Below are positions 1-26,215 of a stretch of 64,000 nt of DNA, piece after piece. Source of the stretch: Yuukianura sp. NJ FZ-2021 (taxonomy: Eukaryota); contig CM102285.1 of NCBI GenBank assembly GCA_046563655.1, forward strand, positions 14,260,001-14,324,000, read 5' to 3'. The translations under genes and the position numbers were made by a program. A model generated the notes under the pieces. That model worked only from the letters and a program-made list of their open reading frames with translations, had not been told where the DNA came from and did no database searches. The first letter of the stretch is position 1. Each line of letters starts with the position of its first letter.

Positions 1-489
1 CCGCTTTTCGAGGTCCAAATTGCAGAATTTTTCGAAGGTTTTCACCTTGTCAATTGTGCAACTCTTTTTTAGTGAAATTTTGACCTACTTTTGGAAATTG
101 TGCTTTGAAAATGAAAATTTAGCTTTGGAAAAGTTCTTTTTCGTTGAAAAGTTGCAAGGACACTATGATGCTTGTGTTGAAGGTGCTGCTGATCGTCATA
201 AAACTGCGACTGTTTCTGGAACATTTCTGGAGTTATTTTTGTCAAATTTTGAAAAAAAAAATTTGAATGAAAAACAGACTTCCATAAATTATAAAAACAA
301 GACCGCATTTCCTTTTCAGTTTTCAAAAATTACAATTTATTGGAGGAAAATTTGACGACACGTTGTCACTTCTGTCACGATTGACGCAAACAATAGATTT
401 GACCTTTCCGCCAAGGTCATCTACTCCAAAATTTGTCACTTATCAGGAACTTAAACTCTCAAAATTTTACACGAACCTAATCAAGCATA

Positions 490-667
490 ACCTAGTATGT
501 TTAATCATGGTCAAAACAATTTCATCATAACATAAAAAAGTCAAAAAGTGAAAATGACGACCAATGCAAGTTGTGGGTTATGGTACGATTTCTTCTGTTT
601 GACCTGCTCACTCTTTGACCTTTTCACTTTTTGACCAAATTGTTTTTGACCATATTACATAGAACCG
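490..667. mobile_element. Short degenerate MITE-like inverted-repeat element (family copy 1)
   Basis: GGTCAAAA..GTCAAAAAGTGAAAA arm faces TTTTCACTTTTTGACC..TTTGACC arm; reverse complement of ~585-667 closely resembles 49708-49785. Confidence 0.55.
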
Positions 668-692
668 AATTAACATATTGAAGTGGTTTTGA

Positions 693-1607
693 TTAGTAAC
701 GTTGTGCATTGGCTTGCGTCATTTGCAGAAACTGGAATCCACTGGACACTCCGAGCGTCTTTTGACAAAGTGGACAAGAGTGGGTGATGTCCGGAAACAT
801 TTGATCGGCCAAACGTCGTTGCTGTCTGGAAGCATAAAGTGCTGCAAACAAAATTAAAATGATGAAAAGTGGCAGCGCGAACAGCGTAATTACTGATCCA
901 GCCATGAACATTAAAGCACCAAAAAGAATCAAAATGAACACAAGGAATCCAGCGTAGGGGTAATACGACCTAGAACTGCGGCGGAACACTGGCGACGGCG
1001 TTTCTGTCGTCACGGTCAAAATAGAGTTACAGCAAAATGGACACACGACGGCAACACTGGAGCGGCCGTTGAGAGTAATGGCTTGGTTTGCTCCAGCGGC
1101 AGCGCTGAGTGTGGAAGATCCACCGTAGTTGGCCGTTTGTGGTCCATAGGCTGGTGGTGGTTCCAGTGTAAACGGTTGGTAAGATGGATTCAAGAATCCG
1201 ATTGGTGGCAGCACTGCTCGGCCAGAAGAGGGCGCTGCTGCGGGTGGAGTTGGGGTGGTTGGTGGCTTTAGTCCGGCCAAAACAGTTGTTGGATCGATTG
1301 AGTCTGTGGAAGAAACTGGGCTGGCCAAAGTGGACGGTTCTGGTGGTTGAAATGAATTTGAAGGGTCCACTGGCTGAATCGGATTTGGGCGTTCGGGTGG
1401 CTCAAATACAGAAGTAGAAGCATCCACTGGCTGAAACGAAGATGTTGTTGGGCCGTCTGGCAGAAACGAAGTCGGAAGGTCCGCTGGCTGAAATGAAGTT
1501 GAAGGGTTTACTGACTGGTTGCTTGTTTCAGACCTTCCAACAGCAAAAGTCGTTTCAGCAATTTGAGTCGGTCCTAGTTCCGAACTGACTTCACTTCTGT
1601 CGCCCAT
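693..1607 (-). CDS. LITAF: LITAF/SIMPLE-like zinc-ribbon protein, single coding exon, 304 aa
   Basis: Pro/Ser-rich N-terminus with PPPAY; CPFCC...hydrophobic segment...HSCPLCQKTLG matches the LITAF CxxC-hydrophobic-HxCxxC layout. Confidence 0.85.
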   Translation of the reverse strand: MGDRSEVSSELGPTQIAETTFAVGRSETSNQSVNPSTSFQPADLPTSFLPDGPTTSSFQPVDASTSVFEPPERPNPIQPVDPSNSFQPPEPSTLASPVSSTDSIDPTTVLAGLKPPTTPTPPAAAPSSGRAVLPPIGFLNPSYQPFTLEPPPAYGPQTANYGGSSTLSAAAGANQAITLNGRSSVAVVCPFCCNSILTVTTETPSPVFRRSSRSYYPYAGFLVFILILFGALMFMAGSVITLFALPLFIILILFAALYASRQQRRLADQMFPDITHSCPLCQKTLGVSSGFQFLQMTQANAQRY

Positions 1608-2437
1608 TTCGTTTTATTTTTCAAAATGAGCACCCAAAAATGCAAATTTTTTATGAAATCTCTTTCTTAAAACAAAGCACGTAGAAATTGAAATTCTAAC
1701 AGGAAAAAAATGGTGAGTGATGAGATGATATTGCAAAAACTAGGAAAAGTTAATTTTTTTTTAACTGAGAATGAATGTCCTGATAGTAACTTTATTATTT
1801 TTGACACCTTGATGAAGGTGTTAAGGACAGCTCACCTTTTATCTAATCAATCCTCAACAGGTTAACTAACTTCAAACTCCAATTTACTCCTATTTACATT
1901 AACACAGAATTTCAGCAAAAGAGCGAAAATTTTTCACAACATTTGAAATATAAAAAAAAATCGACAAAAGTTTTTCTATAAGGTACCATGAAGTTGGAAT
2001 GCAATTGTAGAAGCGTGGTACCATTCCCTAGAATTCCATTTTTGAAAATGGCATCGTGTTCGTTTTTTTATGAATTGAAGGTGATTTATTTTTCGTACGC
2101 GTACGTAACCGAATTGACAGACTAAAGTCAAAACGAAAAACATCCGTTAAGAATTAGCATGGATACAGTGGATGCTATTCCGTTTTAGCGCATCCTATTC
2201 CTTGTGCTTTCTATTTTTTTGCTCCGAGTGGAGAGATAAGAGAAGGCTGCGATGCGAGAACAGTGTGAACAGACTTTACTGTAATATAGGTTAGATAATC
2301 TTTCCAATCTAATAAACTACTCTAACTGCCAGTTTACAATCTATTCCTCTGGTTGTTATTGTAAATTCTAAATACAGGGAAACTTGGATTAGAATGAACT
2401 TCCTCAGTACTCAGAAATGGTAAGGAGTAAAATGGTC

Positions 2438-2891
2438 GGATAGTGAAAACATCGGAGGTGAAAAGATCGCAGACTAAAATAATCGCAACATGAAGTGGTG
2501 GAAAAATGAAATGCTCGGAAGTGAAACAGTCCGCTTCCACTGAACTGCAATTTTTTCATTTTTCTTATATTTGTTACAAAAAAAATTTGATTTAGACAAA
2601 AATATTAGCAGTTTTTTCTTTACACGCTGTTTTTCGAAAACTGTTTCATAACGGTGAGAAAATCAGACAATGAATGCTTACGCTACGTAAGAATGCTTTC
2701 CTTGAAATTACCGAATTTTGAAATTCTGAGTGACCTTCGACATTTTCCCATTATTTCCACGTATTTATGATTCGACCTTTTCTTCTTAGACTATTTCACT
2801 TCTGAAATTTCCGACTAATTCACTTTGCGACCATTCCATGTGGTGATTTTTTTATGATGCGATCTTTTCACCCCCGATGTTTTCACTTTCC
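2438..2891. mobile_element. MITE-like element with imperfect inverted arms
   Basis: AGTGAAAACATCGGAGGTGAAAAGATCGCA (~2442-2471) vs TGCGATCTTTTCACCCCCGATGTTTTCACT (~2858-2887); inner pair GAAGTGAAACAGTC / GACTATTTCACTTC. Confidence 0.6.
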
Positions 2892-3477
2892 AAAAAATTC
2901 ACTTCGCGCGATTTCCTATATAATATGTAGATGATAAGTGATAACATTTGTCGTGGTGGTGGGTTTTTGACATAAACAAAACGAATGGAATAGTAGATGG
3001 AATCTTTCAGGTTCATTAATCAGGTTAACGTAATTATTTTGGTAATTTATGATTGCTATTAATCATTGTCCATTAACTCAGTATTTCTTCTTAGCCATGC
3101 TGTGACAATCACACTTCTACTGCAAAATTTTTTATCTTTATATTTCTCAGAGGCTTTTTAATCTCTGCACTGCAGTTGAGGCTTCTTTAATGAAAAATAA
3201 TTCATCAGAGTTTTTAGAATTCGTAAGGTTTTGAAGTATGTCGTATCAACTTTATATGTGTTTTTCATTTAGTATAAAGTAGTATTCATTTAGTTTCATT
3301 TCTGTATCAAGGACATTCTCATTATCACCCTTCAAATTGTTCTTAATGTTGAAATTCATTTTTTTAATATTTATAATCCAATAATCAATAATTGATTTAT
3401 CTTTTCAAATCCTCAGTTTTTTTAAACAAGTCTGGCAGTTCGAAATTAAAGTCAACCTCCCCAATTTCTGATGTGTA

Positions 3478-3870
3478 GAAAGTTGATTTAGTGGGAAAAT
3501 TCTGAAAATATTTATATGAACTTCTTAACAACCCCCGATACTAAAAAGCAAAAAAAAATTCACAGGAGATAAAAGAACGCTTTAGAAAAAATAATTTTTT
3601 TTTTTTGGAAATTTGAATTTTTTTTCCAAATTGCATGAAAAACGGTTTTAGGGTAACAATTACGTATGCTGAACATGATCCTGAAAGAATTTTTTCGAAA
3701 AAAGTCAACAACAAAAAAGTTAGACTTCATTCAGTGCTCAGGTTAGGTTAGGGTTGTCAAGAATCGGATTTTGATTTCCGGTGAAATTTTATTTTTGCTT
3801 CCTGATATCAGGGGCCGATAGGAAGTTTACATAAAAATTGTCAGAATTCTCCTACTAAACCAAAGATTTA
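3478..3870. mobile_element. Degenerate MITE-like element with ~90-bp inverted arms
   Basis: TTTAGTGGGAAAATTCTGA...CCCCGATACTAAAAAGCAAAAA..TTCAC vs GTGAAATTTTATTTTTGCTTCCTGATATCAGGGG...TCAGAATTCTCCTACTAAA. Confidence 0.5.
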
Positions 3871-3891
3871 CCCAATAACTTTCGTTTCGAT

Positions 3892-4596
3892 TCAAATGTC
3901 ATTTTCTTTGGCGTTTTTGTACGTAATCTCAGTACTACAACAAGCGTGATCCGAAATGCCAAAGTCTTTCACCTCAGCTTCAGTTGCTGTTGCATCGTCA
4001 GTAACAATGAAATCCAAAAGGGTTTGGGTTTCTCTTCTCGTGACTTGGTTGACTAGTTGATACAAGTCATAGTTTTCAAAAAGGATCTTAATTTGCGTAG
4101 TGAAGTTATCTTCGCTAAGCCAATCTCTGTTAAAATCACCCAAGAGAAAGAATGATCGATTTGAACTAACAAGTTGCTGAATAATCAGCTCCAAATTGTA
4201 CAAATCAGCTTGGTTCGAGTTTCTGTGAGGGATATACACAACTCCAACAATAATACTTGTGTCAAATGTAAGTTGGATTTCCATGCACATAAATTCTAAT
4301 GAAGAAGAAGGTTTAAATGTTTCTTTGGCAATGTAAAATTCTTTCACTTCTAAGTTTTCCTCACATAAAATTCCAACGCCACCTCCTTTTCTGCCTACTC
4401 TATCTTTTCTGTAAAGAACAAAGCCTTTTGGAACAATGAACGTTGACTTCGGATTTAACCAAGTTTCTGAAATACATAAGATTTTTGCTTGTAGTATATT
4501 TTGCATAACTCCTATCCGATTTGCTTTTCCTTTATAGGAGCGTACATTCTGGTGCGCTAGTTTAAATTTTTGACACTCAGTTTTTGGGTCATCCAT
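3892..4596 (-). CDS. Stand-alone non-LTR-retrotransposon-type AP endonuclease (EEP/exo_endo_phos), 234 aa, no RT
   Basis: APE motifs in order: HQNVRS, ISETWL, RKDR..KGGGV, VYIP, GDFN, TR..LLDF, ISDH; no reverse transcriptase ORF downstream. Confidence 0.85.
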   Translation of the reverse strand: MDDPKTECQKFKLAHQNVRSYKGKANRIGVMQNILQAKILCISETWLNPKSTFIVPKGFVLYRKDRVGRKGGGVGILCEENLEVKEFYIAKETFKPSSSLEFMCMEIQLTFDTSIIVGVVYIPHRNSNQADLYNLELIIQQLVSSNRSFFLLGDFNRDWLSEDNFTTQIKILFENYDLYQLVNQVTRRETQTLLDFIVTDDATATEAEVKDFGISDHACCSTEITYKNAKENDI

Positions 4597-4631
4597 TTTG
4601 ATTTATTTTCGAAATAGCACCCAAAAATGCA

Positions 4632-7110
4632 GAGGAAAAGTTAATAGTTTTTTTGTTGGAAACTGAGCGAATACTATATATAGTCATTTTATTATTTTTG
4701 ACAATTTGATCAAGTTGTTGAGGACATCATACATTTTATCTAATCATTCCTCGACGGATTCACTAACTTCAAAAATCCAATGACTCAAGTGCGAAATCTC
4801 ATTGTTTGAAACATGGTACGTGGAAGTTCAAATTCTAACAGGAAAGAATTGCGAGTGAGGCGATATTAGAAAATCGAGGAACAGTGAATAGTTTTTTTTG
4901 GAAACTGAGTATCTACTATATATAGTAGTTTTATTATGTTTGACAATTTGATCAAGTTGTTGCGGACACCATACATTTTACCTAATCATTCCTCGACGGA
5001 TTCACTAACTTCAAAATCCAATTACTCAAATGCAAAATCTCATTGTTTGAATCATGGTACGTAGAAGTTCAAATTCTAACAGGAAAGAATTGCGAGTGAG
5101 GCGATGTTACAAAATCGAGGAACAGTGAATAGTTTTTTTTGGAAACTGAGAATCTACTATATATAGTAGTTTTATTATGTTTGACAATTTGATCAAGTTG
5201 TTGCGGACACCATACATTTTACCTAATCATTCCTCGACGGATTCACTAACTTCAAAATCCAATTACTCAAATGCAAAATCTCATTGTTTGAATCATGGTA
5301 CGTAGAAGTTCAAATTCTAACAGGAAAGAATTGCGAGTGAGGCGATGTTACAAAATCGAGGAACAGTGAATAGTTTTTTTTGGAAACTGAGAATCTACTA
5401 TATATAGTAGTTTTATTATGTTTGACAATTTGATCAAGTTGTTGCGGACACCATACATTTTACCTAATCATTCCTCGACGGATTCACTAACTTCAAAATC
5501 CAATTACTCAAATGCAAAATCTCATTGTTTGAATCATGGTACGTAGAAGTTCAAATTCTAACAGGAAAGAATTGCGAGTGAGGCGATGTTACAAAATCGA
5601 GGAAAAGTGAATAGTTTTGTTTTTGGAAACTGAGGATCTACTATATATAGTAGTTTTATTATTTTTTACAATTTGATCAAGTTGTTGAGGACATCATACA
5701 TTTTATCTAATCCTTCCTCGACGGATTCACTAACTTCAAAAATCCAATGACTCAAGTGCGAAATCTCATTGTTTGAAACATGGTACGTGGAAGTTCAAAT
5801 TCTGACAGGAAGGAATTGCGAGTGAGGCGATATTAGAAAATGGAGGAACAGTGAATAGTTTTTTTTGGAAACTGAGAATCTACTATATAGAGTAGTTTTA
5901 TTGTTTGACAATTTGATCAAGTTGTTGCGGACACCATACATTTATCTAATCATTCCTCGACGGATTCACTAACTTCAAAATCCAATGACTCAAATGCAAA
6001 ATCTAATTGTTTGAAACATGGTACGTAGAAGTTCAAATTCTAACAGGAAAGAATTGCGAGTGAGGCGATATTAGAAAATCGAGGAACAGTGAATAGTTTT
6101 TTTGGAAACTGAGAATCTACTATATAGAGTAGTTTTATTGTTTGACAATTTGATCAAGTTGTTGCGGACACCATACATTTTATCTAATCATTCCTCGACG
6201 GATTCACTAACTTCAAAATCCAATGACTCAAATGCAAAATCTAATTGTTTGAAACATGGTACGTAGAAGTTCAAATTCTAACAGGAAAGAATTGCGAGTG
6301 AGGCGATATTAGAAAATCGAGGAACAGTGAATAGTTTTTTTTGGAAACTGAGAATCTACTATATAGAGTAGTTTTATTGTTTGACAATTTGATCAAGTTG
6401 TTGCGGACACCATACATTTTATCTAATCATTCCTCGACGGATTCACTAACTTCAAAATCCAATGACTCAAATGCAAAATCTAATTGTTTGAAACATGGTA
6501 CGTAGAAGTTCAAATTCTAACAGGAAAGAATTGCGAGTGAGGCGATATTAGAAAATCGAGGAACAGTGAATAGTTTTTTTTGGAAACTGAGAATCTACTA
6601 TATATAGTAGTCATATTATTTGGCCAATTTGATCAAGTTGCTGAGGACATCATACATTTTATCTAATCATTCCTCGACGGATTCACTAACTTCAAAATCC
6701 AATTACTCAAGTGCGAAATCTCATTGTTTGAAACATGGTACGTAGAACTTCAAATTCTAACAGGAAATAATGGCGAGTTAGGCGGTATTGCAAAATCGAG
6801 GAAAATGTGACGCTCAGGGGTCCCATGGCTTGTGAGATGAAGAACACAGGAGGGTGAGTTTGTGATGTAAACCAAAAGGTTGGGTTTATTTTGGTTGCCC
6901 CGACTATAGAATCATCGCTTCCATGCAATCCTCATCCTGTGGCGAGTGGGATGGGACTTTTCCCAAACGCCACAAAAAGTTAATAGTTTTTTTTGGAAAC
7001 TGAGAGTCTACTGTATATAGTAGCTTTATTATTTTTGACAACTGGATGAAAGTTTTGAGGACATTATAGCGTTTATTAAATCATTCCGCAACAGATTAAC
7101 TAAATAACTT
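4632..7110. repeat. Tandem array of ~240-bp units, about 10 copies (last one degenerate and interrupted by an LTR)
   Basis: GAAACTGAG recurs near 4659, 4901, 5142, 5383, 5626, 5867, 6104, 6343, 6583, 6995; units nearly identical (e.g. CCTCGACGGATTCACTAACTTCAAAA in the nine intact units). Confidence 0.97.
6806..6974 (-). mobile_element. Short (169 bp) solo LTR
   Basis: Ends TGTGACG...CGCCACA (TG..CA, short inverted termini); AAAA duplicated on both sides within the unit sequence GAGGAAAAGT; AATAAA on minus strand. Confidence 0.7.
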
Positions 7111-8107
7111 CATTGCCAGTTTTCTCATTTTTACCTAACATAACGTTCCACCAAACTAGGCAATTTTTTCCACATTTTTTTCCACACTCGACATTTTTCC
7201 ACAACTTCAAAAGTATTAAACAGTTTTCCAGTTAAATTCCATTAAGTTAAGTTCCATGCATTACAGTAACCGGGAAAAAATCAGAACGACAAACCAAACC
7301 AGAAAAGTTGGGATGGAATTATGTAAGCGTACTTTCTTTCCATAAAATTCCATTTTGAAACTTCCCTCCTATTTCTCTTATTTGTGATGAGTATCAAGAA
7401 AAACGAGGAAGATCTATTGTTTGAAATGACAATGGGAATGTCTTCAGGTGAATTGTTTCTCCAAATGGAATTCGGAGGCACAAAGTAAGTCTATGGGAAA
7501 ATTATGAGTTTGCTCATTTTTTTACTTTTCAAAAAAAGTCGAATCGAGAATTGTAAGCTGTTCAGAAGTTAAAAGGCGGAGACAAGGTTTCCATCTCGAA
7601 AGAATCTTGACGGATTTGACCAGGGTCAAAAAGTCAAATTGCTCCTTCACTCTCTTTCTCTCTCTCTCTGTCATCGTGGGAACAAATTTTTCAAAAACGA
7701 AAAACAGAAAAAATCACTTCTTGATTTCAATCACATCATATGACACATCAGCTCAGCATCACGTCACTAACCACAACTCAATTAAAGTTAACTTAAATTA
7801 CGTCCGACTAACATAGTTAATACAACAGTGTAGTACACGAAAAAATTTGAATGATTTTTGGACTATGCACTTTTACGTCAAAATTTCAAAATTCTGCGAA
7901 AACTAAACACGCAAAAGACAAAACCTTATGAGAAAATGACAAAATTGAGGAAAATTGATCAAGGAAAGCCTTTTTGGAGTGAAAATGCCAGAAATCCTGC
8001 GGTTTTTGGAAAAATATAAGAAATCGGGGTTTTTCATTTTATGCAATCAGTTAAATTTTGGTTAGACTGAGAACACTTTTAGTGACCTTTGACCTCTGAC
8101 TGCTACA

Positions 8108-10031
8108 ATGTCTCTCTTGTTGGGCTCCTTCAAAGACTTTTTCACAAAGGTCAACTATCGCAAGGTCATCGTTGACAGTCTTGCGTTCCGACTGCACTAC
8201 AAGGTTACTGCGCTCATTTGTCTCATCTGTGGAATCATCATTGCAGAAAGACAGTACATTGGAGATCCCATTGACTGCATCATTGATCACAAAAATGCAG
8301 ACAGAATCATTGACAATTTCTGTTGGGTCCATGGGACATACACGCAACTCGCAATTTCACCTAAAGGCAACATCGGATACGACAAAGGTAACTTTTCACT
8401 AAAAAAAGCTTCAATTTTTTGACCATTTGGATTAATCACGTTTTCGCCCATTTTGATTTTCAATGAATTTGAAGGATTTCAATTTCCACAAAATGATTTT
8501 GACCAATTTGGTTTTTTAACTTTCGACGTTTTCGATTTTCCACTTGATCCATTTTGGATTTTTAATGAATTTGATCAATTTCAATTCCCACATATTAGTT
8601 TTGATCTTATTTCCATTTTTATAATACTTTTTATCATTTTGGCTCTTCGAATTTTGATCTAATATTATTTCGATTTTCAATTTTTGGCATCTCATTTTTT
8701 CGCGAGTTTGAGATGACCTTCAGCCCTTTTCGCGTGACTTTCACTTTTGAGCTTTTGCGATTTTTATTTGACCTTTGACTTTTCATTTGACAGTTAAGAC
8801 TATAGAGGATGACGTGGCGATTGTTCTGAAAGTGAAAGCATTGAAAGGCGACGTCGCTGCACATCCCGCTCTCACCAGGGAATTTTGGAACTACAGACCA
8901 GGAGATGTTAATGATCGTGTATTCCACCAGTACTACCAATGGGTCTGGTGGGTACTCATCATACAAGCAATTCTGTTCTACTTTCCCCATGGGCTATGGA
9001 AGTCATGGGAAGGCGGCAGAATGAAAACGTTCGTGGGAGATTTGAATTCTTACACACTTTCACCCGATGATCGCAGAAAGTATGAGGCTATCGTCTGTGA
9101 CTACTTTTGTAACTGCGAAAATGGACAATGGAGAGTATTTTCTTACAAGTCCAAAGGAAATCACACTTTCTACTCACTCAAATACGTATTTTGTGGTAAG
9201 AAACAGAATTCCAAATTTTTTAAAACAGAATTCCAAATCAAAACTAAAACTTTCTAATTTTGAATATTCTGTTTTTCTAGAATTGCTGAACTTTTCAAAC
9301 GTAGTTTTTCAACTGTACTTCATGGACTGGTTCTTCGATTACTCATTTAGCAAATACGGAATGAAATTGTACAATTTGACTGATCTGCGTCCATACATGC
9401 GCAATGACTACTTGACCAAGGTGTTCCCGATTGTTACAATATGCGAATTGCCGATCATTGGATACGGAGGCGAGATTACCGGACACCAAGCTATGTGCGT
9501 TTTGCCAGTCAACCTCATCAATGAAAAAGTCTTTCTCTTTTTATGGTAAGTTTTCAATTTTTAGAGAATTTTGGGAATTTAGAGAAAAATTTAATTGTAA
9601 GCTACTTCATGCAATCGTATTTGTCGGTCTGTCTGACTGTCCGGTTTTCAATTTCCTAATAACATTATATATTTTTATTTATATAATATATTTTATAATT
9701 TTGCAGGGTGTGGTTTCTGATCATCCTGTCCCTGACTAGCGTCAGTATTTGCTACCGCCTCTTCACCCTCCTTCCGTTCTCGTTCTTCCGGAAGTGGCTT
9801 TTACTGCGATTCAACCACACGATGTGCGAAAAGTCGGTGGACAAACTATGTCGTAAACTAGGTTATGGTGACTGGTATTTCCTGCACCTTCTTGGAAAAA
9901 ACATGAATCCAATCTACTATGCCGAACTGATCAGTACCCTTGCCGATCGGATCGACCAGGACGACCGTGCCGATCCTGGAAACATTCCAACCTGGCAGTT
10001 GGGCAACAAAGAGTCACTCATGCACGCTTAA
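8108..10031 (+). CDS. Innexin gap-junction protein; exons ~8108-8387, 8794-9195, 9281-9545, 9707-10031
   Basis: FRLHYKVT, QYIGDPIDC, NFCWVHGTY, YYQWV, PHGLWKSWEGG, VFPIVTIC, CVLPVNLINEKVFLFLWxWF, GDWYFLHLLGKN. Confidence 0.97.
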
Positions 10032-11394: not shown

Positions 11395-14300
11395 ATGAAA
11401 AAAGTAAAGTTCCAGGAGAAAGTTCTCAAACTTTCTCCAGTGGCGTCCGCCTCGATACTTTTCATCTCAGCTCTCCTCCTCACAAAATCAAGGTAAACTT
11501 TCAAAAAATTTAAAATCTGAAAAATTATTTGTCAAAAAGTTGAAAATTTTGGAAATTTTCTCAATGAAACGCTCCACGCTTTCCACCCAATCAGAGGAGG
11601 AAAACAGGTCAATTGACAGAAACAGAGAAAGTTTTTTCTCCAAATTTTTCTTTGTTAAACCTCGTTCTCTTTTTCGCATTAAAAGTTATTTTTTCTTTTC
11701 ATTTCTCTTCAGTTTAATATTCAAGTTTTGGTAAGTTTTTTCCCTCAAAGTTTGTTTCTTTTTCAAAATTTAGTAATTTTCTTGTTGAAACTCAAAGTTC
11801 ATGTCAAGCTTTTTTTTTGTGTGTAAAACCTGAAACGTAATTTTTGGAGTCAGTGATTCTTAATTTCTATTGACGAAAGTCGTGTCTCTTCCGGATTTCC
11901 TGTCCCCTCCTTAGAACAATGTCAAAATTTATTCACTCTTGTGACACAAAGCTCTTTTTTTTTGAAAAGACAAACAAAACTCACACAAACCTATAGTCCT
12001 TCAGTCTATTGTTTGTTCACTGAACAAGAATGTGTAGGATTGAAAGGATTTTGCAAATATTTGCCACTTATTCAGTCTCTTCCCTTTGCTTTTCCAGTTC
12101 TGGCTACGACAATTCCCTCCGCAGAAGAACAATTTCAGACCAGCACAGGGAAGCCTCCAGGCAGCGATTTCTTCGTACAGAGCTGAATTTACTCCATATT
12201 CCAAAAAACGGTGGCGGGAGACACGAAAACGGCGGAGCGCGATTCCATGACAGTAGTGCCGTGAATCAAATTCGGAGTTTAGATTCCGCGCTAACGGCGC
12301 GTTGGGACGCGTCGACTTCAATTTGCCAGAGAATCCCGGGTTTAACAAGGGAGCAGCTTGAACTTTGTCTGAGAAGTCCGGACGTGGCCGAAGTGGCTGT
12401 GACTGGAATTGAGCTGGGCCTGAAGGAATGTGGCCATCAAATGGCCAAACATCGCTGGAACTGCTCGTCACTCCAAGGTTCACTCAATCCACATGCTACG
12501 CACCTTCTCCAAAAAGGTAATTACGAATTACTCAAGTAATTACTTGTAATTAACCAAGTAATTACGAATTAATGAAGTAATTAACTGTAATTACAGCGAA
12601 AATTAACTTTAATTAGTCAATTTTAAAAATTTAGGCGCCAAAATTGCCATTTTGAAGCCCACAATTATGCAATTTTTGAAAAGCTGACCAACTTTCTCTT
12701 TTTTGGTGAAAGGTCAAACCTTAGAGGTCATTGACCTCGAAATATTTTTTTTTCTTTTGCACTCAGTTTGAATCGATCGTGTAACTTCTGAAGGTGTTGA
12801 AAAGTTGGGAGAAAGGGGAAAGCAGACGCTGAAGCTTAATTTTTTTTTTTGAAAATTCAATTTGAGCTGAGCGGGATTCGAACCGAAGGCGCTGCTGGAA
12901 AGATCAAAGAGATGCAAATCTCTCATCATCTCCCTCCTTTTCCCGCTCCACTTTCATCATTTTCTGTTTGAATTCAAAATGAAAAGGCAGTACACTTTCA
13001 TTTTGCCGCGTACTTTTTTGAAAAGATGATGAAAAGATCAAAAGTTGGATCGAAGTCCCGTTTCTAAGCAACCAGTTTCTGATGAATGGATTTTTATTTT
13101 TAAACTCCCTTGTTCTTTTCAAAATTTTGAAAAACATGGATATTGCTCAACGTTTTGTTGAGGTAGAATTCGAAGTGGTGGTCCAAGGTGACCTCCCCGA
13201 GCGGATCCAATTGGAGGTGACCGAGTAGAGACCTTAAAGGGCTCCCAGGGGGCCCTTTGCTTCGTTATGGGGGCCCTTTGGTGCGTTCCATTCATCTCCT
13301 TCGCTGATGTGTCTAATTGAGTTCAAAATGTCTTCATTTGGGACACTGAAATGAATAGCACGGAGACAATGACGGAAGGACATGAATCTTTTCCTAGTTT
13401 TCAAAAATTTTTGAAAAAGTGTCCTTAAGGGCCCTCTGTCCCTTGGAAGGAAAGTGAGAGATGAAGACAGAGTAGAAAAGGAAATGGGCCCTTCCTTCCA
13501 GAAAAAGGCCCCTCCTACCCTGTCAATCTTCGTTTTGAATCTTTACACTCAAAATTTTCGTTTTTGAAAATATATTTTTCAAAATAATGTTTTCATAATT
13601 TATTTTCGCTTTTTTTTGGACTAGATTAAAATCAGGTTCACTTTGATCGCTCAACTATAAAAAATTTGATTAAAATCTCATTTTTTTCGTCTTTGAAAAA
13701 AATGCTTTGTATATTTTCCATTTTATGATTTGGGCCAGGGGGCCCTTAGCGCTGGCGGGAAAACGATTTGAATAAGACATAGTTTGTATAACGTAATTTT
13801 CATTTCCAAATTTCAATTTTCATTTTTCAATTTTGAAAGTTGGGAAATTTTCTTTTCAAAATGGTTGCGTGTCCAATTGATTTTGGAAATTGGTCGAAGG
13901 AGTTTTCCCTTTGAATAGTTTCCATTTACACAACATTGGTTCCAGACCGCTTGAAGCCTTTTGTGCTTTGTTGTTTGAATTTTTGTGAAATTCTAAAAAT
14001 AGAATTTGAAATCTGTGTGGAATGCCGTCTCTCACCTTGACTCTTGCTTAATTGTTGCTCTGGATTCATTCGTGTGTGGCAACCAATCAAGTAAGCGGTG
14101 GGCGGTTCCCACCCGGGCTTATTTCCTAATGGAACATTTTAAAAAACGGCGCTTTTTAAAAAAGAACTTTTTAGAACAAGTTGAATGAAGACCTAATTTT
14201 GAAAAAGAGTGCGGTGAGATACTAGAGTTTGTGGGTTAAGTCATTTTGTGGCTCTGATTAAGCCTCCACCGCACCCGCCCATCAATTATCCCACCACGGA

Positions 14301-17300
14301 AGACCCGCCTACGCAATTAGATGGAGATTGAATTTGATGAAGATGACGAGCAGACCTAGAGCCACCAAAATGAAACGAAACCCACCACGCCCACCATGCC
14401 CCACCATCAAATGCTCCCACGTCAATTTGACTAAAAAAAAATTTGAACCCACGTTAATCTAAAGAAACCGCCAGAAACCATTTAAAAAAAAGTGTTGACC
14501 GTTTTGCTGTTGACCTTTTTGCGTAAACTGCACACATTTTACGCCAGAGGCACAATTCTGTGAATGAACTTTTTCCAGTTTGGAAATTTCAGTGACAAAA
14601 TTTCATAAAAATGTCAGATGCCTTCGAAATTCGAAATTCGGAAATTCAAAATTCAGTTTTTTGAAAAAGTTGAATTCAAAATTTTGATTGACCTTGTTAC
14701 AGGTTACCGTGAATCGGCATTTGGGCATGCGATTGCAGCAGCAGGCGTGACTTTTGCAGTGGCCAAAGCCTGCAGTCAAGGCAAATTGCTGTCTTGCGGT
14801 TGTGGTTTTCAGTATGACGACATGAAAAACTACTACTCAACACAAGATGACGGTGGACAGTTACCTCTGAGGTAAGTCACGAACTAAAGGTCATTGACCT
14901 TCTGACCTTTGTTGACCTTTTGACCTGTTACAGCCAAGATGACCTGTTAGGAGGTCACGGGTCAGCCTGGAAGTGGGCCGGATGCAGCCACAACATGGAC
15001 TATGGAATGCGATTTGCCAAAAAGTTTTTGGATTCGCGCGAAAAGTCGACCGATTTACCCTCGAAGATTAATCTACACAACAACCGTGTCGGAAGATTGG
15101 TAAGCCTGGTTCAAAATTTTAAAATTTTGAACTTTTTTTTCTTTGAAATTTTGAACTTGATGTTAGGTTATAAGGTGTATTGTGTTTGTGGGCCACCGCG
15201 GTAGTTTCAATTTCCATTGTTCCTTGTATGCCTTTGGACAGTTAGCGTCGAGGTGTGAAATGAGATTCCCATTGTTCTGTGAAAGTCTTTTGTTTGTTGG
15301 GTGTCTCACCATAAATATTTATGAAGGGCCTAATGAAACGGAGAGCCCTTGGCCAATCAAGGGCCCTCCTAGGACCCCTTGGCCAATCAAGTCAAGGGCC
15401 CCCTTCCAGAACACTTAAGAGTACCTACCACAGTCTCAAGACTGACACTGACACAAAGGTGCTTAATAACATGATCATCTTACTCTAATTACATGGAAGT
15501 GTTATGGGCCATCCCACACAATGGAACTATTAAATTCATCCAAAAGTTGCAAAATTCACTTGCAGATTTTCCAACTAGAAAAAAATTCGCGAGTTTCACT
15601 TTGGCGAATTTCTCATTCAGTTTCAGGTACAACACGACTCACGACTAATTCCTTTGTGTCTGGTGTCTTCCTCATCTGCGAACAAAAAAAAATCCAAATT
15701 ACAATTTTTTTTCTCGATTTTGCAAAGCGTGAGCAATTCCGTGTCTCACGCTAAATTGAATTGTTCAACTTTTTTTTTGAAAAAAGAAGTCTCTTTCTTC
15801 TCTTGTTTTGTCACTTCAATCGTGTTGAAATTTGGACAAAAAAAGTTAATTGATTTGTTAATTGGAAATTGGCTGTCAATAGAATTTGAAAAAAAGAGAC
15901 TTTTTATTCACACTTTCAATCACGATTTTTTCAAAGTCACAAATTGTGACTCACAATTGACTGTGTTTTTCCTTTGAATAAATTCAAGTTTATGACCAAT
16001 TCAAACTCAAACTGAATTCATAAAAAAATTACTTTTTTGAAAGTTTTGAGCGTGAGAATTTATAACGATTGGAAAACGCAATTTCAACTTCGTAAAATTT
16101 GCAATTTCTGCACAAAAGTCACCAAAAAAAAATGTTGGATGGAATTTAGTCGCAACAAAAAAAAAACGTTTAAGAAATTTTGTTTAGAAAATCGTTTGTA
16201 CCGGAACTTTTTTTTTGAAAAAGGGAGGTAGGTATTTAGTTAATTGCACGTTTGAATTGAATTTTGAGAGCGTGTTTTTGAAATTTGTTTTCGGCTTGTG
16301 GAGTCCCTTAAGTCCCCTCCCCTTCACTTCCCTTTGTGTTTTTATGTTCAGAAGAGGAAGAAAATGGATTGTTTTGTTCATAAAAGTGATTGAAATTGAC
16401 TTGAGTAAGTTTATTACTTGGAAGATGAAGATGTTTAAGGTTTTTATGGAGTTGAGGTAATTGGATGTTTAGGTTTTACATGTTGAGGTAATGCCTTTTC
16501 CTTCTCACCTGTCGTGCCATTAGAAGTAAACGTACCCTGTACTTACACTTCCTTTATGAAGTCATCTTCCCTTCAATTTCATCTTCCAAAAAGAGAGGGA
16601 GAGAAGTAATTTTTCAAATTAATGGGCAACACGGTCATGATTGCGGGGCGAGTTTTTGAAACGACTTTTTGTTCTTGTTTCCGGAACGGCTTCCAGACAG
16701 ACACCACCACCAAAAATTTAAGAAACACCGCCACCGTGGGTGGGGCCGTGGGTAACACCGTGGGTGATCCACTTCTTAAATTCTCACCTACAAATTAAAA
16801 TCAAACACCTCACTTCAAAAAAACACCCGACAGAAAAAAAAACATCCGACACGAACAGGATTTTCAAAAATTGAAATTTTTCATGAAAATGAACAGGTTA
16901 TTTTTTTTTTCAAGAATTGGTAATTTCAAAACTGATATACTGCGCAGTTTGTGCGCACTTTATGCGCAGTTTATGCGCAATTTGTGCGCAGTTAATGCGC
17001 AGTTTGTGCGCAGTTAATGCGCAGTTTGTGCGCAGTTTATGCGCAGTTTGTGCGCAGTTTGTGCGCAGCGCAGTTTGTGCGCACTTTAAATTCACTCCAA
17101 AATTGAATTGGATTTTTACAATTTTATGAAAAACGAGACTTAATTCTTTTTTTTTTTTTTGAAATTTTAGGCCGTGGCTTCTAATATGGAAGTTCGGTGC
17201 AAATGTCACGGTTTGTCCGGCAGTTGTGAGCTGCGTACTTGTTGGCGTTCGTCAGCCGAGTTCCGCCGAGTCGGAACCGAACTGAAGAACAAATTCCGGC

Positions 17301-17701
17301 AGGCAGTGATGATCGACCAAACGGAATTCGGGAACAGGCCGCTTCTGGGCGGGAATCGGAGACAACATGACCTTGAAAAGAGAATGAGCAGGTCACAACA
17401 GCGTAGAAAACGACGTGGATCGAAAGAAGAGACAAAGAAGTTGGACTTGTGGTACTACGAGAGGTCACCGCAGTACTGTGAAGCCAATACTCAGTTTGGA
17501 TTCCCGGGAACTTCTGGGCGGAGGTGCAACCGTACAGATGATAGACGTGACCCTGGCAGTTGTGCCACTCTGTGTTGTGGTCGAGGCTACTCTGTCATAA
17601 GACAAGTGACGACGACGAGGTGCAAATGTCTGTTTCGATGGTGCTGCGAGGTCATCTGTCAAAACTGTACCGTTGACGAATGGATCACGGTGTGCAAGTG
17701 A
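11395..17701 (+). CDS. Wnt10: Wnt ligand, Wnt10 subfamily; exons ~11395-11492, 12098-12516, 14703-14871, 14934-15099, 17171-17701
   Basis: [58 protein letters not shown]-terminal EWITVCK typical of Wnt10; exon 1 is a hydrophobic leader whose phase matches exon 2. Confidence 0.92.
16940..17085. repeat. ~11-bp minisatellite (TGCGCAGTTTR-like) in Wnt10 last intron
   Basis: About 13 consecutive TGCGCA-containing units. Confidence 0.9.
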
Positions 17702-20070: not shown

Positions 20071-20622
20071 TTAGTAAAAATACACTCCAAAAACGGTGCC
20101 AGTGACAAATAGAGTGTCCTGCAAGAAAATATTCAAGAGTTAAGAAGTGAGAGGTCAAAGGTCAATGAATTTTGACATTTATATGCTTACGGTGACGTAG
20201 GTGTAAGTTGCATAAGCATCAGTGGCATTGTCCCACTGCGTTTTGACTCCAGACAGAACTCCTCCTCCGACGTTTTCTCCAATGGTGACTAATGACATGA
20301 CCTTGTAGCGTGGGAATCTTAAAAGCTTGACCTTGTCATTGACCTGCGCAGACAAAAGTGATGTCCACTCCATAGCTTCGTCTGGAACATAACTTTTCCC
20401 TTTCATGAATTCCTGGATAGTCTCCTGCAGAATTAACTCTACCCGGGGAACACTGAACTTGTCCCGGAGAGAAGGTCGCATGGCAGACAACACGGATTGT
20501 CTCGTGTCATCTGCTGGACTGGCAGAGGATGACTGTCTGAATAGAGAGGCTCTGCGTTGAAGCTTGTCCGGGTCAAGGTGACCTTGACCTTTGTCCAAAA
20601 TTGACTTAGGATTGTCACTCAT
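20071..20622 (-). CDS. Tctex1-domain dynein light chain (TCTEX1D2/DYNLT2B-like); 2 exons
   Basis: RPSLRDKF, ILQE, FPRYKV..VTIGE..GGGV, WD..TD; final exon DTLFVTGTVFGVYFY*. Confidence 0.9.
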
Positions 20623-21293
20623 TCTGTCCAAACTTCAAAGCTCAAAGTTCACAAAACTGGCGGTTGTCAACCGTGTAGCTGCTTTGAAGAGAAAGCACAA
20701 CAAAGAATTCCTTGGTAAAAATCAATAGTTGATCGTTGAAAGTTAAAATTATATTAAAATTATAGTGAAAATTAAAATTAAAGAGATTGAAGGTTAAAAT
20801 AAGTGAAAATTAAAGTGAAAATTAAAATTAAAGAGGGTGAAAATTAAAATGAGTGAAAATTAAAGTGTGAAAGTGAAAATTAGCAAACAGAAAGAGAAAG
20901 TTGTTAAAGAAAGCAGGAGAAAGTGACGCTAAAAATTTGAAGAGAAAAAAAGCGCGGGAATTTCATAAATCCATAAGAAAAAACAAAACAAAACAAAAAA
21001 CATGTGTTTGTTTTGACATTTTAGACTGACAAACGGTTTGAGCGTTGACTTTATAGTGTTCATGTGTTCTACGTCTTTAATTTAATTGATTTGTGCAATT
21101 AGTTTATTTAATTTATGTAAGCATTGTTGAAATTGGAACGACAATGCCCTTGCAATGTACTAAAGGTAGGTGGATTGATCATTGGGTATTTGTTCAACGT
21201 TTTTCTTTATTTTTGTGACGTTTTGTTTTTGTTTAGTAATGCATGAATTCAATTGGTTTTTGTGTTTCTTGTGTGACGGATTTCTGGTTGTGA

Positions 21294-24331: not shown

Positions 24332-25539
24332 ATGGCTTCACAAAGATTTTTGTTTTACATTTCGTACATTGGTTCAAAATACAAGTAAGCTAACAGTTTA
24401 TTCCTCGGTAACAATTATTTTGTCGTAATCGATTAACGCTTCGCATAATGGGACGTATGTAATAATAATCGATTGATTGATTAATTAATTAATTTTTGGT
24501 TTCCAGTGGTATGCAAAGGCTGGTTGAAAGATCAAATAACTCAAAGGATTTTGGTACAATTCAAGGCATAATTGAATTTGGTCTGCAGAACGTTCTGCGA
24601 ACGCAAGTTGCACGTTTGGGAATAACGAGCAGAACTGACGAAGGGGTCCATGCAATAGAATCAGCTGCGTATTTTGATTACTTTGGTATGTCCACTGGAA
24701 TTTGTCTAAAACGTAAAGGGTATAATTGTAGATTCTCTTTTTGATTTTAGAACTGGACAAACTAAGTCCAGAAAAACTTTGTCGTAACCTCAACGCTTTC
24801 CTGCAACAACACGAGACTGATATTCGGATTCGTCGAGTCATCGAAGTTCCAACGGACTTCAGTGTTCGTCGAAATCTAATCTCCAGAACCTACTGCTACC
24901 GGATTGCCGTACCAAAGTACAATTATTTCGACAGTTGTAACAACTTCCGTTACATCACTTCGTCCATACCCATTACACATCTCAATCGAGTTCAAATTGT
25001 GCCTCAACCATTTGACCCTCAAGCAATCCACGACGTCTGTAAAGTCTTTCTTGGTACTTGGAACTTTAAAACCTTCAGTAAACCGGCTACTGGACGTGAA
25101 CATCTTGCGCAGAAGGATTACGTCAAAACTGTCAAACGAATTTCCATTAGTCACATCAACAGTCAATTCGAACACTCGTACTACATTGATCCGCGCCTCA
25201 AAGACATTGACTTTTTTGATTTTCATGTGGAGGGGAGTGGATTTCTGCGAAGACAGGTATGTTATGATATCACGTGGGCGCTGTAACTTTTTCAATTGAT
25301 TTCTGTGATTGGTTAGTTAAAAACAATTGATTTTGTTATGTTAGGTGAGACGCATGGTTGGAACTTTGCTTGGAATCGGCAGTGGTGTTATCCAGGAGAA
25401 GGACATTCGATTTATGCTGGAGAATCCTTCTCCGCAAAATTGGAATGTCAAGTGCATGACAGCTGAGGCGGATGGACTCTATCTAAAATCCGTCAACTTT
25501 GTAGAAGATTTGCCAATAATTCGTGGTTCGCTGATTTAA
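24332..25539 (+). CDS. PUSL1: tRNA pseudouridine synthase-like 1 (TruA family); exons ~24332-24384, 24507-24685, 24751-25256, 25345-25539
   Basis: RFLFYISYIG, SRTDEGVHA (catalytic Asp), RTYCYRI, GSGFLRRQVRRMVG, AEADGLYL. Confidence 0.9.
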
Positions 25540-25588
25540 TCTCAACGTTTCCAGTAAGCAATCTCGGACGTCGCAACTATCTAACGTC

Positions 25589-26215
25589 ATGAGTGGGAGT
25601 AGTCTGGCTGAAATTTTGAACAAAAAGCGACACGGCCTCAAACCTACTCAAACGAAAGTGACCAATCCAGACGGAAGTGTTCAAGTTTTTGACCAGGCTG
25701 GATCCACCGTTGTACCGTTACCAAGCAACCTTGTGCCAAATCAAACTGGTTACGGATTTGTCGTCGACACGAAACCGGATTTAAGTGTTGGAGAAATACG
25801 TCAATGGCTTCTGGTATCTTCCCAAGATGTTCCAGCTGATCCGAATCTTCTGAAAAATCTGTCCGTTACTCACGTTCTGTCACTCCTTCCAGGATTCCAG
25901 TTGGATCCAAGTAGTCAACCAATCAAGCATCTCAGTTTAGATCTTTACGATGACGAATCAAGTATTCTGGATTCCCATGTACTAAAACCAGCTCTAGACT
26001 TCATCAGCGAAGCAAAGTCCTCTGGTGGCCGAGTACTTGTTCACTGTAACGCTGGAGTCTCTCGAGCTCCTTCTGTTGTTATGTTGTACTTGATGGCTAT
26101 CGAAAAAGTGCCATTCGAGCAGGCGTGGGAGACTGTTAAAACTGCCCGCCCTTGTGCAAAACCCAATCGTGGATTCTGGAATCAACTCAAGAACTTTAAT
26201 TCTCATAGCTCATGA
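25589..26215 (+). CDS. DUSP19: Atypical dual-specificity phosphatase, single exon, 208 aa
   Basis: LKPTQTKVT..DG, GFVVDTKPDL, SQDV, VHCNAGVSRAP active site, KPNRGF. Confidence 0.9.
   Translation: MSGSSLAEILNKKRHGLKPTQTKVTNPDGSVQVFDQAGSTVVPLPSNLVPNQTGYGFVVDTKPDLSVGEIRQWLLVSSQDVPADPNLLKNLSVTHVLSLLPGFQLDPSSQPIKHLSLDLYDDESSILDSHVLKPALDFISEAKSSGGRVLVHCNAGVSRAPSVVMLYLMAIEKVPFEQAWETVKTARPCAKPNRGFWNQLKNFNSHSS

Follow-up and report, generated by a model that had tools for sequence, protein, structure and literature searches.

The closest described counterpart of the locus studied here is the BCNT-p97 gene of ruminants. In the excerpts available from the literature (Iwashita et al. 2003, 2006; PMC12129022, PMC4613681), a tandem duplication of BCNT was followed by the insertion of an RTE-1 element with an intact endonuclease (EN) domain, and this domain lies inside a fusion protein in which host coding exons are retained; this gene is both expressed and conserved in ruminants. 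Few LINE-derived host genes are listed in the excerpt of PMC12129022, where BCNT-p97 is the one that retains the EN domain. The 5' UTR promoters of mouse L1, as presented in the excerpts of PMC9022269 and PMC6454616, consist of tandem monomers, a short unique stretch and the ORF, and the number of units varies by recent duplication. The RTE elements covered by the excerpt of PMC1291365 (C. elegans RTE-1 and the schistosome elements SR2 and SR3) are 3.2-3.9 kb long, with proteins of 922-1066 aa.

In this study, we analyzed a 64-kb stretch of DNA (hereafter the window) that contains a 234-aa ORF for a LINE-type endonuclease next to a LITAF-like gene. As in the case of BCNT-p97, so far as the excerpts describe it, host-gene-derived DNA is duplicated nearby and a LINE has left an intact AP-endonuclease domain without reverse transcriptase (RT), whereas here the shared DNA is confined to non-coding 5' flank and the ORF consists of nothing but the EN domain. 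As in the mouse L1 5' UTR portrayed in those sources, tandem units of ~200-240 bp and a short unique stretch stand directly before an ORF and there were recent duplications; unlike the L1 monomers, the unit and the short stretch also occur once before the LITAF-like gene, the units seem confined to the locus, RT is absent, and there is apparently no family. The surrounding DNA is gene-dense (innexin, wnt, Tctex-1 and other genes), and mobile-element debris surrounds the locus, whose parts are the following:

693..1607, minus strand: LITAF-like gene, a single 304-aa ORF in which CPFC ... HSCPLC knuckles flank a long hydrophobic stretch
1604..1644, minus strand: ATG-proximal block of the LITAF flank, ending at ATGG and common to the endonuclease flank
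1645..1944, minus strand: LITAF flank proper, a single repeat-unit copy (part B, 1645-1745; part A, 1742-1890) with a tail to 1944
1991..2047, no strand: weak match to 7305-7360, putatively the outermost piece of duplicated flank
2414..2915, no strand: inverted-repeat element in the spacer between the two genes (107-nt arms, 76% complementary; self-match 81%)
3472..3874, no strand: MITE-like inverted-repeat element (87-nt arms, 75% complementary), starting 17 nt past the endonuclease stop codon
3892..4596, minus strand: 234-aa ORF, a predicted complete LINE-type AP (EEP-fold) endonuclease domain without RT
4593..4631, minus strand: homologue of 1604-1644 in the endonuclease flank, likewise ATG-proximal
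4632..6805, no strand: array of 9 tandem units, each 238-248 bp long and made of parts A and B
6806..6939, no strand: unique insert, ~134 bp, separating the ancestral-type unit from the end of the array
6940..7177, minus strand: endonuclease flank of ancestral type (end of part B, part A and tail), collinear with 1700-1944
7305..7360, no strand: weak match to 1991-2047, again putatively the outermost piece of duplicated flank

First, sequence and predicted fold identify the 234-aa ORF as a complete LINE-type AP endonuclease domain without RT. It matched Pfam PF03372 (Exo_endo_phos; E 2.1e-10, 41.2 bits against a cut-off of 24.5) and scored just under the cut-off for PF14529 (26.7 vs. 27.4 bits). 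The catalytic motif set is whole (N17, E44, Y121, D154/N156, D195 and S215-D216-H217), its columns being invariant or nearly so, and in a PDB profile search these residues aligned with the matching motifs of L1 EN. Among 31 strongly conserved family columns, 29 are kept; the remaining two have F in place of Y and E in place of K. In the PDB search L1 EN was the best match (E 1.8e-19), above ExoIII and APE1 (2.7e-11 or weaker). The AF2 model (pLDDT 94.9, pTM 0.91) and Foldseek indicated a complete four-layer alpha/beta sandwich, with human L1 EN on top (E 5e-12, TM 0.68-0.72) and TRAS1 EN at TMt 0.74. The domain thus shares the EEP fold and the full motif set with the EN of LINE ORF2 proteins (human L1 EN, 1VYB, 2V0R and 8SP5; TRAS1 EN, 1WDU), whereas its identity to L1 EN in structural alignments is 15-18% and it stands alone, L1 EN being the N-terminal domain of an EN-RT polyprotein. 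The HxN motif begins 14 residues into the ORF (offset 4-21 in 21 relatives), and the N-terminus looks native. At the other end, the last predicted strand comprises residues 219-227, and the ORF ends 7 residues on, 17 residues after S-D-H.

Second, the relatives of the ORF are EN-RT proteins of 920-1100 aa, with Pfam RVT_1 in 10 of the 12 longer ones, which makes the ORF a derivative of a LINE endonuclease. With a profile built from 43 relatives (850-1120 aa), the match had E 5.4e-66 and covered profile positions 6-236 of 946. The nearest full-length relatives lie on 4.1-4.2 kb contigs, and each has a single ORF (924-940 aa) that opens with EN at its very N-terminus. In size and single-ORF layout they resemble the RTE-clade LINEs of the PMC1291365 excerpt, a likeness of size and layout only, whereas the RT and the 3' tail by which the clade is defined are absent here. 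No RT remnant was detected in the 64 kb, either by tblastn with 12 full-length relatives (nothing better than E 0.24 outside the ORF) or with the 43-relative profile (next best match E 0.03, at 15475-15645). Past the endonuclease stop there is no recognizable LINE 3' end before the inverted-repeat element begins; neither an RT downstream of EN in the same ORF nor a 3' tail with target-site duplication, as in an autonomous LINE, was found. The preliminary description of this DNA had called the ORF uninterrupted, with the APE catalytic motifs kept and RT absent, and had derived it from a retrotransposon; the Pfam match, the motif columns and the RT searches of the 64 kb agreed with the former, and the EN-RT relatives with the latter.

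These results bear on a possibility that has to be taken seriously, though as a minority one, namely that the ORF is a neutral relic. A fairly recent LINE beside an old, diverged copy of LITAF-type flank would have lost its 3' two-thirds by deletion and would have no host function, and the ORF would still be open only for want of time. Its composition is AT-rich as in intergenic DNA (GC3 0.33 in both, vs. 0.42 in the LITAF gene), debris of mobile elements lies around it, and an ORF chosen for being open carries an ascertainment bias. In addition, no protein more than 40% identical to it was found among 1.84 billion representatives, and hence no conserved orthologue exists in public data. On the other hand, LINE relics are normally 5'-truncated and retain the RT end. 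Here exactly one whole domain is left, from a native-like N-terminus to just beyond the last strand, with nearly all conserved positions retained, and the lack of any RT trace suggests that the loss was old.

Third, the two ORFs share their upstream DNA. Both are on the minus strand, with CAT at 1605-1607 (LITAF-like ORF) and 4594-4596 (endonuclease ORF), and their ATG-proximal blocks of 41 and 39 nt, respectively, both terminate at ATGG. Between 1644->1604 and 4631->4593, 36 of 39 aligned pairs are identical (3 mismatches, 2 one-base gaps; 87.8% over 41 columns and E 9e-7 by blastn against the 64-kb window), including a TAA in frame 9 nt upstream of the ATG. Beyond the array the homology resumes, with 81% identity between 1745-1944 and 6975-7177 (155 matches, 37 mismatches, 12 gap events, E 2e-21). 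A weak block farther out, 1991-2047 vs. 7305-7360, is also collinear, with 77% identity across 57 nt (E 5e-5) and a local score of 74 that is borderline against shuffles (mean 48.3, sd 8.1, max 75). The former part of this pair overlaps 1969-2296, a stretch with high summed contig depth. LITAF-type 5' flank of ~0.35-0.45 kb is therefore present twice, in direct orientation and 3 kb apart, and the copies have diverged by ~17-20% (JC 0.20), with one gap event per 16 nt. They bracket the ORF and the spacer as direct repeats, far longer than usual target-site duplications. Neither the flank blocks nor the endonuclease ORF recurred elsewhere in the 64 kb (blastn). The locus is a real chimera, in which the distal flank copy stops at ATGG exactly where the LINE ORF starts.

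The homology starting at the ATG had already been noticed in the preliminary description, with correct coordinates, and its resumption past the array proved wider than the ~1845-1940 vs. ~7080-7180 claimed there. A common dispersed repeat, which that description had set against its own reading, is not what the shared flank appears to be, as far as the contig depths of a second study tell. Its proposal of a tandem LITAF duplicate holds for the ~0.35-0.45 kb of 5' flank but not for the rest, since no second LITAF coding region or 3' flank was found at 1960-3891 (tblastn and blastn). Its view of a young chimera is not supported, given the divergence and the gaps of the flank copies, and only the array is young. 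Its suggestion of a possibly domesticated nuclease under a host promoter goes beyond what the locus shows, the conditional neutrality simulation given below being the one argument for it.

This array, at 4632-6803 according to TRF (241-bp unit x 9.0, 95% matches), is an amplified piece of LITAF-type flank, a relationship overlooked before: all nine units are homologous to 1645-1890, with 71-79% identity. Units u2-u4 are 100% identical, as are u6-u8, and u1 and u5 are 94% alike; judging from the identical units, the array alone is the young part of the locus. Each unit contains a palindrome around a TATATA core. The post-array part A (in 6940-7177) and the LITAF part A share states that are absent from all nine units, which marks the array units as derived and the amplification as local and later than the duplication. 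The insert at 6806-6939 had no match within the 64-kb window and contained no RNA family and no tRNA.

We then compared the locus with contigs of two studies, X1 and X3, of which X1 may be the source sample of the window assembly, X3 being the only independent support. The path from the MITE-like element through the EN ORF, the ATG and the flank into the first unit was bridged without difference by X1 record 7 (3702-4730) and covered by X3 records 23 and 24 (3631-4681; 1 other letter, 1 gap). Thus, the junction stands in contigs of both studies. An X3 contig also 'goes back 204' with a u6-type unit, and so the tandem arrangement is present in the second study as well. Repeat mis-assembly of the junction or the array is consequently a highly improbable account. 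It could draw on the 100% identity within u2-u4 and u6-u8, which makes the copy number of such an array hard to assemble, and on the fact that none of the listed contigs spans the whole array, but both the junction contigs, with 0-1 differences, and the unit-to-unit contig argue against it. The locus is common to two organism labels, between which it shows 1 difference.

The same data gave summed contig depths, which are rough and are not copy numbers: in X1, 1097 over the core of the MITE-like element (bin 3609-3772) vs. 33.5 in neighboring bins, indicating many read copies, and in the second study, 38.8 over the array unit (bin 4757-4900) vs. 4.1 over the ORF. The unit depth in the second study is about what nine units of one array give, with the ORF and the LITAF flank at baseline, and these depths suggest that there is no family carrying array units at >=88% identity. 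X1 record 3 (1176-2128), a second version with ~6% divergence, and X3 record 19 (1548-2128) of the other study both carried LITAF coding sequence continuous with its flank, and thus the flank accompanies LITAF in more than a single copy. Over 4101-4592, the summed depth in organism A was 2-3x that of its neighbors, with a joint 4267->4454, and there may be further EN-like copies. A contig of this organism joins 1820 to 4722 with 10 other letters between, which points to at least one more unit variant elsewhere in organism A.

These observations also weigh on the opposite direction of copying, in which the shared DNA would be the LINE's own 5' UTR, made of tandem promoter monomers, a short tether and the ORF as in mouse L1, and the LITAF-like gene would have taken up a piece of it, including the ATG, as its promoter. 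Nine units of ~240 bp, a 38-nt unique block and a native-looking ATG do reproduce the monomer-tether-ORF1 layout of mouse L1 promoters in the excerpts of PMC9022269 and PMC6454616, and the end of homology at ATGG is symmetric between both directions. However, the depth of the second study, rough as it is, fits this one array and no unit-bearing family at >=88% identity; two diverged versions show the flank running on into LITAF coding sequence; the units of the array are derived, as expected of local amplification after the duplication; and the locus lies in gene-dense DNA. Copying from a LINE 5' UTR to LITAF is therefore disfavored, and we regard it as improbable.

Whether the ORF has been kept by selection depends on the age of the fusion. 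In a simulation with the flank parameters (K 0.197, 0.061 gap events/nt), which assumes that the window's flank copies are direct duplicates, neutral and as old in their split as the fusion, a neutral ORF stayed open in 0 of 5000 runs at half the flank divergence, 1 at a quarter and 72 at a tenth. Should the fusion date back to the flank split, the lack of neutral survivors hints at selection on the ORF, and even at a tenth of that age few neutral ORFs would survive, which speaks against a neutral relic, as does the coincidence that it requires for a junction at the ATGG of host-type flank. Conversely, the extra unit variant in organism A means that the distal flank could stem from an unseen, already diverged paralogue, in which case the fusion would be younger; the extra EN-like contigs there suggest that a LINE family may persist; and over 3631-4555 the second study departs from the window by no more than 1 letter and 1 gap, so that purifying selection is unreadable from this pair.

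In the history that we propose, the 5' region of LITAF would have been duplicated, and fusion with a single-ORF LINE, possibly RTE-like, would then have taken place at the start codon or beside it, perhaps by way of ATG(G) microhomology. All that followed the EN domain (RT, 3' end and any duplicated LITAF coding DNA) would have been lost, and a 241-bp piece of the distal flank would finally have been amplified to nine copies, some very recently. This would be the route described for ruminant BCNT-p97. The ORF would be transcribed from the LITAF-type flank, with a TATA-like palindrome in each unit, the nearest ~80 nt before the ATG; its product might be a stand-alone, Mg-dependent DNA-nicking enzyme, unable to retrotranspose alone; and the ORF would have been kept open by selection since the fusion. 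The structural part of this explanation, a duplicated LITAF-type flank joined to a LINE EN ORF at the ATG, is probable, while the whole, including expression and selection, is plausible but falls somewhat short of probable. Intergenic-like GC3, the lack of duplicated LITAF coding sequence or 3' flank, and an ATG junction that a LINE 5' UTR fits equally well all count against it.

With its RT-less EN ORF behind a diverged and locally amplified LITAF flank, the locus is a candidate for a captured nuclease gene. There are few documented cases of LINE enzymatic domains being co-opted, and an intact EN ORF without RT, joined at the ATG to host-type DNA, provides a clean natural test case for the retention of a retrotransposon nickase by a host and for the role of promoter duplication and local module amplification in gene birth. 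It is also conceivable, though rather unlikely, that a nematode lineage turned a LINE EN into a stand-alone host gene by placing a duplicated LITAF-type promoter at its ATG and boosted it with a nine-fold 241-bp TATA module. If so, it would be an invertebrate, EN-only counterpart of BCNT-p97, a nickase without RT that might act, for example, in DNA processing, defense or genome rearrangement. If the ORF is an untranscribed relic, it would be an unusual 3'-truncated LINE fragment ending exactly at a domain boundary, and would show how easily such fragments mimic genes.

Finally, the LITAF-like neighbor scored below the cut-off for Pfam zf-LITAF-like (21.3 vs. 23.8 bits, E 3.1e-4), and the match, which takes in a longer hydrophobic insert, extends across residues 183-287. 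Its best Atlas cluster was a nematode LITAF-like zinc ribbon family (score 0.86), which is a lead only. The zinc-ribbon pattern of LITAF runs CxxC, hydrophobic stretch, HxCPxC, and CPFC and HSCPLC are both visible in the ORF.

We found that host-type flanking DNA is joined to a LINE-type AP endonuclease ORF (EN ORF) exactly at an ATGG, and that this flank is homologous to the DNA 5' of the ATG of a LITAF-like gene nearby (LITAF flank). The window as a whole was AT-rich (38.6% GC), gene-dense invertebrate DNA, in which 14 of the 29 long ORF pieces had Pfam family matches. The features of the locus and its surroundings are as follows.

Features of the chimeric locus and its neighbourhood
693-1607, minus strand: LITAF-like ORF of 304 aa (Pfam zf-LITAF-like, E 3.1e-4, under the curated cut-off)
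2414-2915: inverted-repeat element with 107-nt arms of 76% complementarity, in the spacer between the EN ORF and the LITAF flank
3472-3874: MITE-like inverted-repeat element with 87-nt arms of 75% complementarity, beginning 17 nt past the EN stop codon
3892-4596, minus strand: EN ORF of 234 aa (Pfam Exo_endo_phos, E 2.1e-10, over the cut-off)
8108-9546, 12024-17698, 20182-20634, 25535-26212 and onward: host genes around the locus (Pfam: innexin, wnt, Tctex-1, pseudouridine synthase, dual-specificity phosphatase, CWC25, WD40, P-type ATPase, CC2D1 DM14)

Since these neighbours are ordinary host genes, the chimeric locus lies in gene-dense DNA and not in a repeat desert. The LITAF-like ORF had recognisable CPFC and HSCPLC knuckles, and the best Atlas cluster for its protein was from nematodes. 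Much of the spacer was occupied by the two inverted-repeat elements; that at 3472-3874 supplied the first AATAAA 3' of the EN ORF, and its core had high depth in the reads.

The coordinates in the preliminary description were exact on checking. The shared DNA ending at the start codon (proximal block) covered 41 nt at the LITAF-like gene (1604-1644) and 39 nt at the EN ORF (4593-4631), each up to ATGG. In the alignment 36 pairs matched and 3 did not, with two gaps of one base each (blastn E 9e-7 within the window). Both ORFs had an in-frame TAA 9 nt 5' of the ATG, and past ATGG their coding sequences were unrelated. Farther out, the homology beyond a tandem array proved longer than first described, pairing 1745-1944 with 6975-7177 at 81% identity over aligned pairs and with 12 gap events (E 2e-21), and an outer collinear block (1991-2047 vs 7305-7360) was weak (E 5e-5; score 74 against a maximum of 75 in 200 shuffles). 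Outward from the ATG, the LITAF flank consisted of the proximal block, part B, part A and a tail, and the flank of the EN ORF (distal flank) of the proximal block, nine copies of A+B, a 134-bp insert (6806-6939), the end of B, A and the tail. No further copy of the flank blocks, the units or the EN ORF was present elsewhere in the 64 kb. Of the chimera originally proposed, the flank homology at the ATG and the intact LINE endonuclease ORF without RT were borne out, whereas duplication of the whole LITAF gene was not, because neither a further LITAF coding region nor a further 3' flank was present between 1960 and 3891; nor was the supposed youth of the duplication, since the flank copies had diverged (pooled p 0.173, JC K 0.197, 0.061 gap events per nt).

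One other interpretation of the proximal block was discarded. Its similarity to the repeat unit, of which it could have been a divergent fragment, was not significant, the observed score being reached by 167 of 500 shuffles for the LITAF block and 322 of 500 for the EN block. When metagenomes were scanned with 20 bases taken from the shared DNA as the pattern, 19 loci came up, all matching just 20-30 nt and none coding for an endonuclease or LITAF relative, and these were chance hits.

The tandem array was itself part of the flank homology, which the preliminary description had overlooked. TRF reported a 241-bp unit in 9.0 copies (4632-6803, 95% matches), and every unit was 71-79% identical to the LITAF flank at 1645-1890. 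Part A after the array and part A of the LITAF flank had common states that were missing from all nine units, so the array is a later local amplification within the distal copy. Units 2-4 were 100% identical, as were units 6-8, and units 1 and 5 were 94% alike; the expansion was recent and stepwise. Between the last unit and the ancestral-type unit lay the GC-richer insert of about 134 bp, which matched nothing else in the window and contained neither an RNA family nor a tRNA. A search for RNA genes in the array, the insert and all of 1-9000 gave one Rfam match (E 0.75), far under threshold, and no tRNA.

The stretch was found in DNA runs only (five rows, two studies), which has no bearing on its expression. 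Contigs without any difference covered 3702-4730 (one contig of 1029 nt) and 3677-4711 in the two runs from organism A (X1 and X2, respectively), and a run of the second study (X3) gave contigs over 3631-4555, with one other letter and one gap, and 4527-4681, with none. As X1 is possibly the assembly's own sample, independent support comes from X3, in which unit-to-unit linkage was also visible within a contig. Summed contig depth, a rough gauge and not a copy number, was flat in X3 at about 4.1 over the EN ORF; it was about 5 in the LITAF flank and reached 38.8 in the unit, which is roughly what one such array would yield. These data also bear on the possibility that the units and proximal block together make up a monomeric 5' UTR native to the LINE, for which mouse L1, reported to have such a 5' UTR (PMC9022269, PMC6454616), would be the model. 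The ATG junction would be explained equally well in that way; however, the flank occurred in two diverged versions that were each continuous with LITAF coding sequence, the array units were derived, and the X3 depth fitted this one array only, so we consider it improbable that the flank belonged to the LINE.

In organism A, summed depth over 4101-4592, the 5' two-thirds of the EN ORF, was 2-3 times as high as in adjoining single-contig DNA in X1 and X2, and one contig joint (4267->4454) fell inside the ORF. Thus, organism A may have another, rearranged EN-like copy elsewhere. A further joint (1820->4722, side 31) could be taken for an allele without the 2.9 kb that carry the ORF. We rejected this reading, because both ends of the joint were homologous unit positions separated by 10 unrelated letters; more likely, it represents a third unit variant in this organism.

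Comparison of the EN ORF with 1.84 billion representatives yielded 6594 matches with E <= 1e-3, of which 400 reached E <= 1e-10 and none reached E <= 1e-30; the nearest relatives were 36-40% identical. RVT_1 was present in 10 of 12 longer relatives, and the best full-length ones had a single ORF of 924-940 aa on contigs of 4.1-4.2 kb, with the endonuclease at the extreme N-terminus. This size and layout are those of RTE-clade LINEs as far as these are outlined in PMC1291365; the source LINE may thus have been RTE-like, judging solely from the ORF length and layout of the relatives. A profile of 43 relatives, 946 positions long, matched the EN ORF through profile positions 6-236 with E 5.4e-66. 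Its HxN motif began 14 residues after the Met, within the range of 4-21 seen in the 21 M-initiated relatives caught by the pattern (44 examined), so the N-terminus looks native. Strongly conserved columns were retained in 29 of 31 cases, including N17, E44, Y121, D154, N156, D195 and S215-D216-H217. The AF2 model (pLDDT 94.9) placed the last strand at 219-227, followed by a 7-residue tail. With the EN ORF alone, phmmer found nothing at E <= 0.01 among PDB sequences, and a profile search was therefore needed; the best solved match was human L1 EN (profile E 1.8e-19, vs 2.7e-11 or weaker for ExoIII and APE1; fold TM 0.68-0.72). Searches with relatives and profile detected no RT remnant anywhere in the window, including the DNA past the MITE-like element from 3471 downward.

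As to how the junction arose, we favour an order of four steps: the LITAF 5' region would first have been duplicated, a LINE would have joined at the start codon or beside it, all DNA past the endonuclease domain would then have been lost, and finally the 241-bp module would have been amplified. We regard this structural history as reasonably probable. It parallels that of BCNT-p97, in which, as summarised in PMC12129022, tandem duplication was followed by insertion of RTE-1, leaving an intact endonuclease domain of unknown function (original reports: Iwashita 2003 and 2006, titles cited in PMC4613681). The locus is of a kind already known, a LINE endonuclease domain kept beside duplicated host DNA, and any function it has is putative. 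In searches of the openly available literature, none of the papers listed dealt with a LITAF-LINE fusion or an EN-only co-opted nematode gene.

Whether the frame is maintained was addressed by simulating neutral decay, on the premises that the fusion is as old as the flank split and that the flanks drift neutrally. The ORF was still open in none of 5000 simulations at half the flank divergence, in 1 of 5000 at a quarter and in 72 of 5000 at a tenth. Together with the clean domain boundary, this speaks for constraint, conditional on the assumed fusion age. A third unit variant, however, implies other flank copies, so the distal flank may stem from an unseen paralogue and the fusion may be much younger. 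GC3 of the EN ORF (0.33) equalled that of intergenic DNA, vs 0.42 in the LITAF gene, and no orthologue was known among the 1.84 billion representatives, whose closest members were the relatives at 36-40%. We tentatively treat the ORF as a candidate expressed and selected EN-only gene, which is quite possible if short of probable; that it is a neutral relic is only slightly less likely.

Some further observations concern the DNA around the two genes. The segment 1969-2296, adjoining the outer edge of the duplicated LITAF flank, was multi-copy, with bin depths of 570-667 in the reads of X1 and 38-162 in those of X3 and with loose ends at 2099, 2161 and 2205, and had no Rfam match; conceivably, it represents the 3' end of the lost LINE. 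At 493-656 lay a very high-copy short element (summed depth 18305 in X1 and 383 in X3, where nearby DNA had about 33 and 5, respectively). Loose ends were numerous at 607-667, and the element had 15-16-bp tandem repeats, a second copy at 49707-49875 (72% over 172 nt) and just a chance-level Rfam match to MIR8643 (E 0.75). It is probably a MITE directly past the LITAF-like stop codon. A possible first exon on the plus strand (7386-7484; ATG at 7386, 33 codons and then a GTAAGT donor) began 26 nt past the outermost flank block, and the peptide of 7417-7467 matched the C-terminus of the LITAF-like protein at 10 of 17 residues (tblastn E 1.2), a likeness most likely due to chance. Finally, the sole X3 contig on the LITAF-like coding region (830-1548) departed from the window over 713 nt by 62 letters and 6 gaps, whereas the X3 contigs flanking this region (2115-2848, 2823-3526 and 3631-4555) were just 1-2 letters off. 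Several diverged coding versions (33-52 differences) occurred alongside an exact one in X1 and X2; either the LITAF-like gene exists in multiple copies that undergo gene conversion, or its polymorphism is unusually high.
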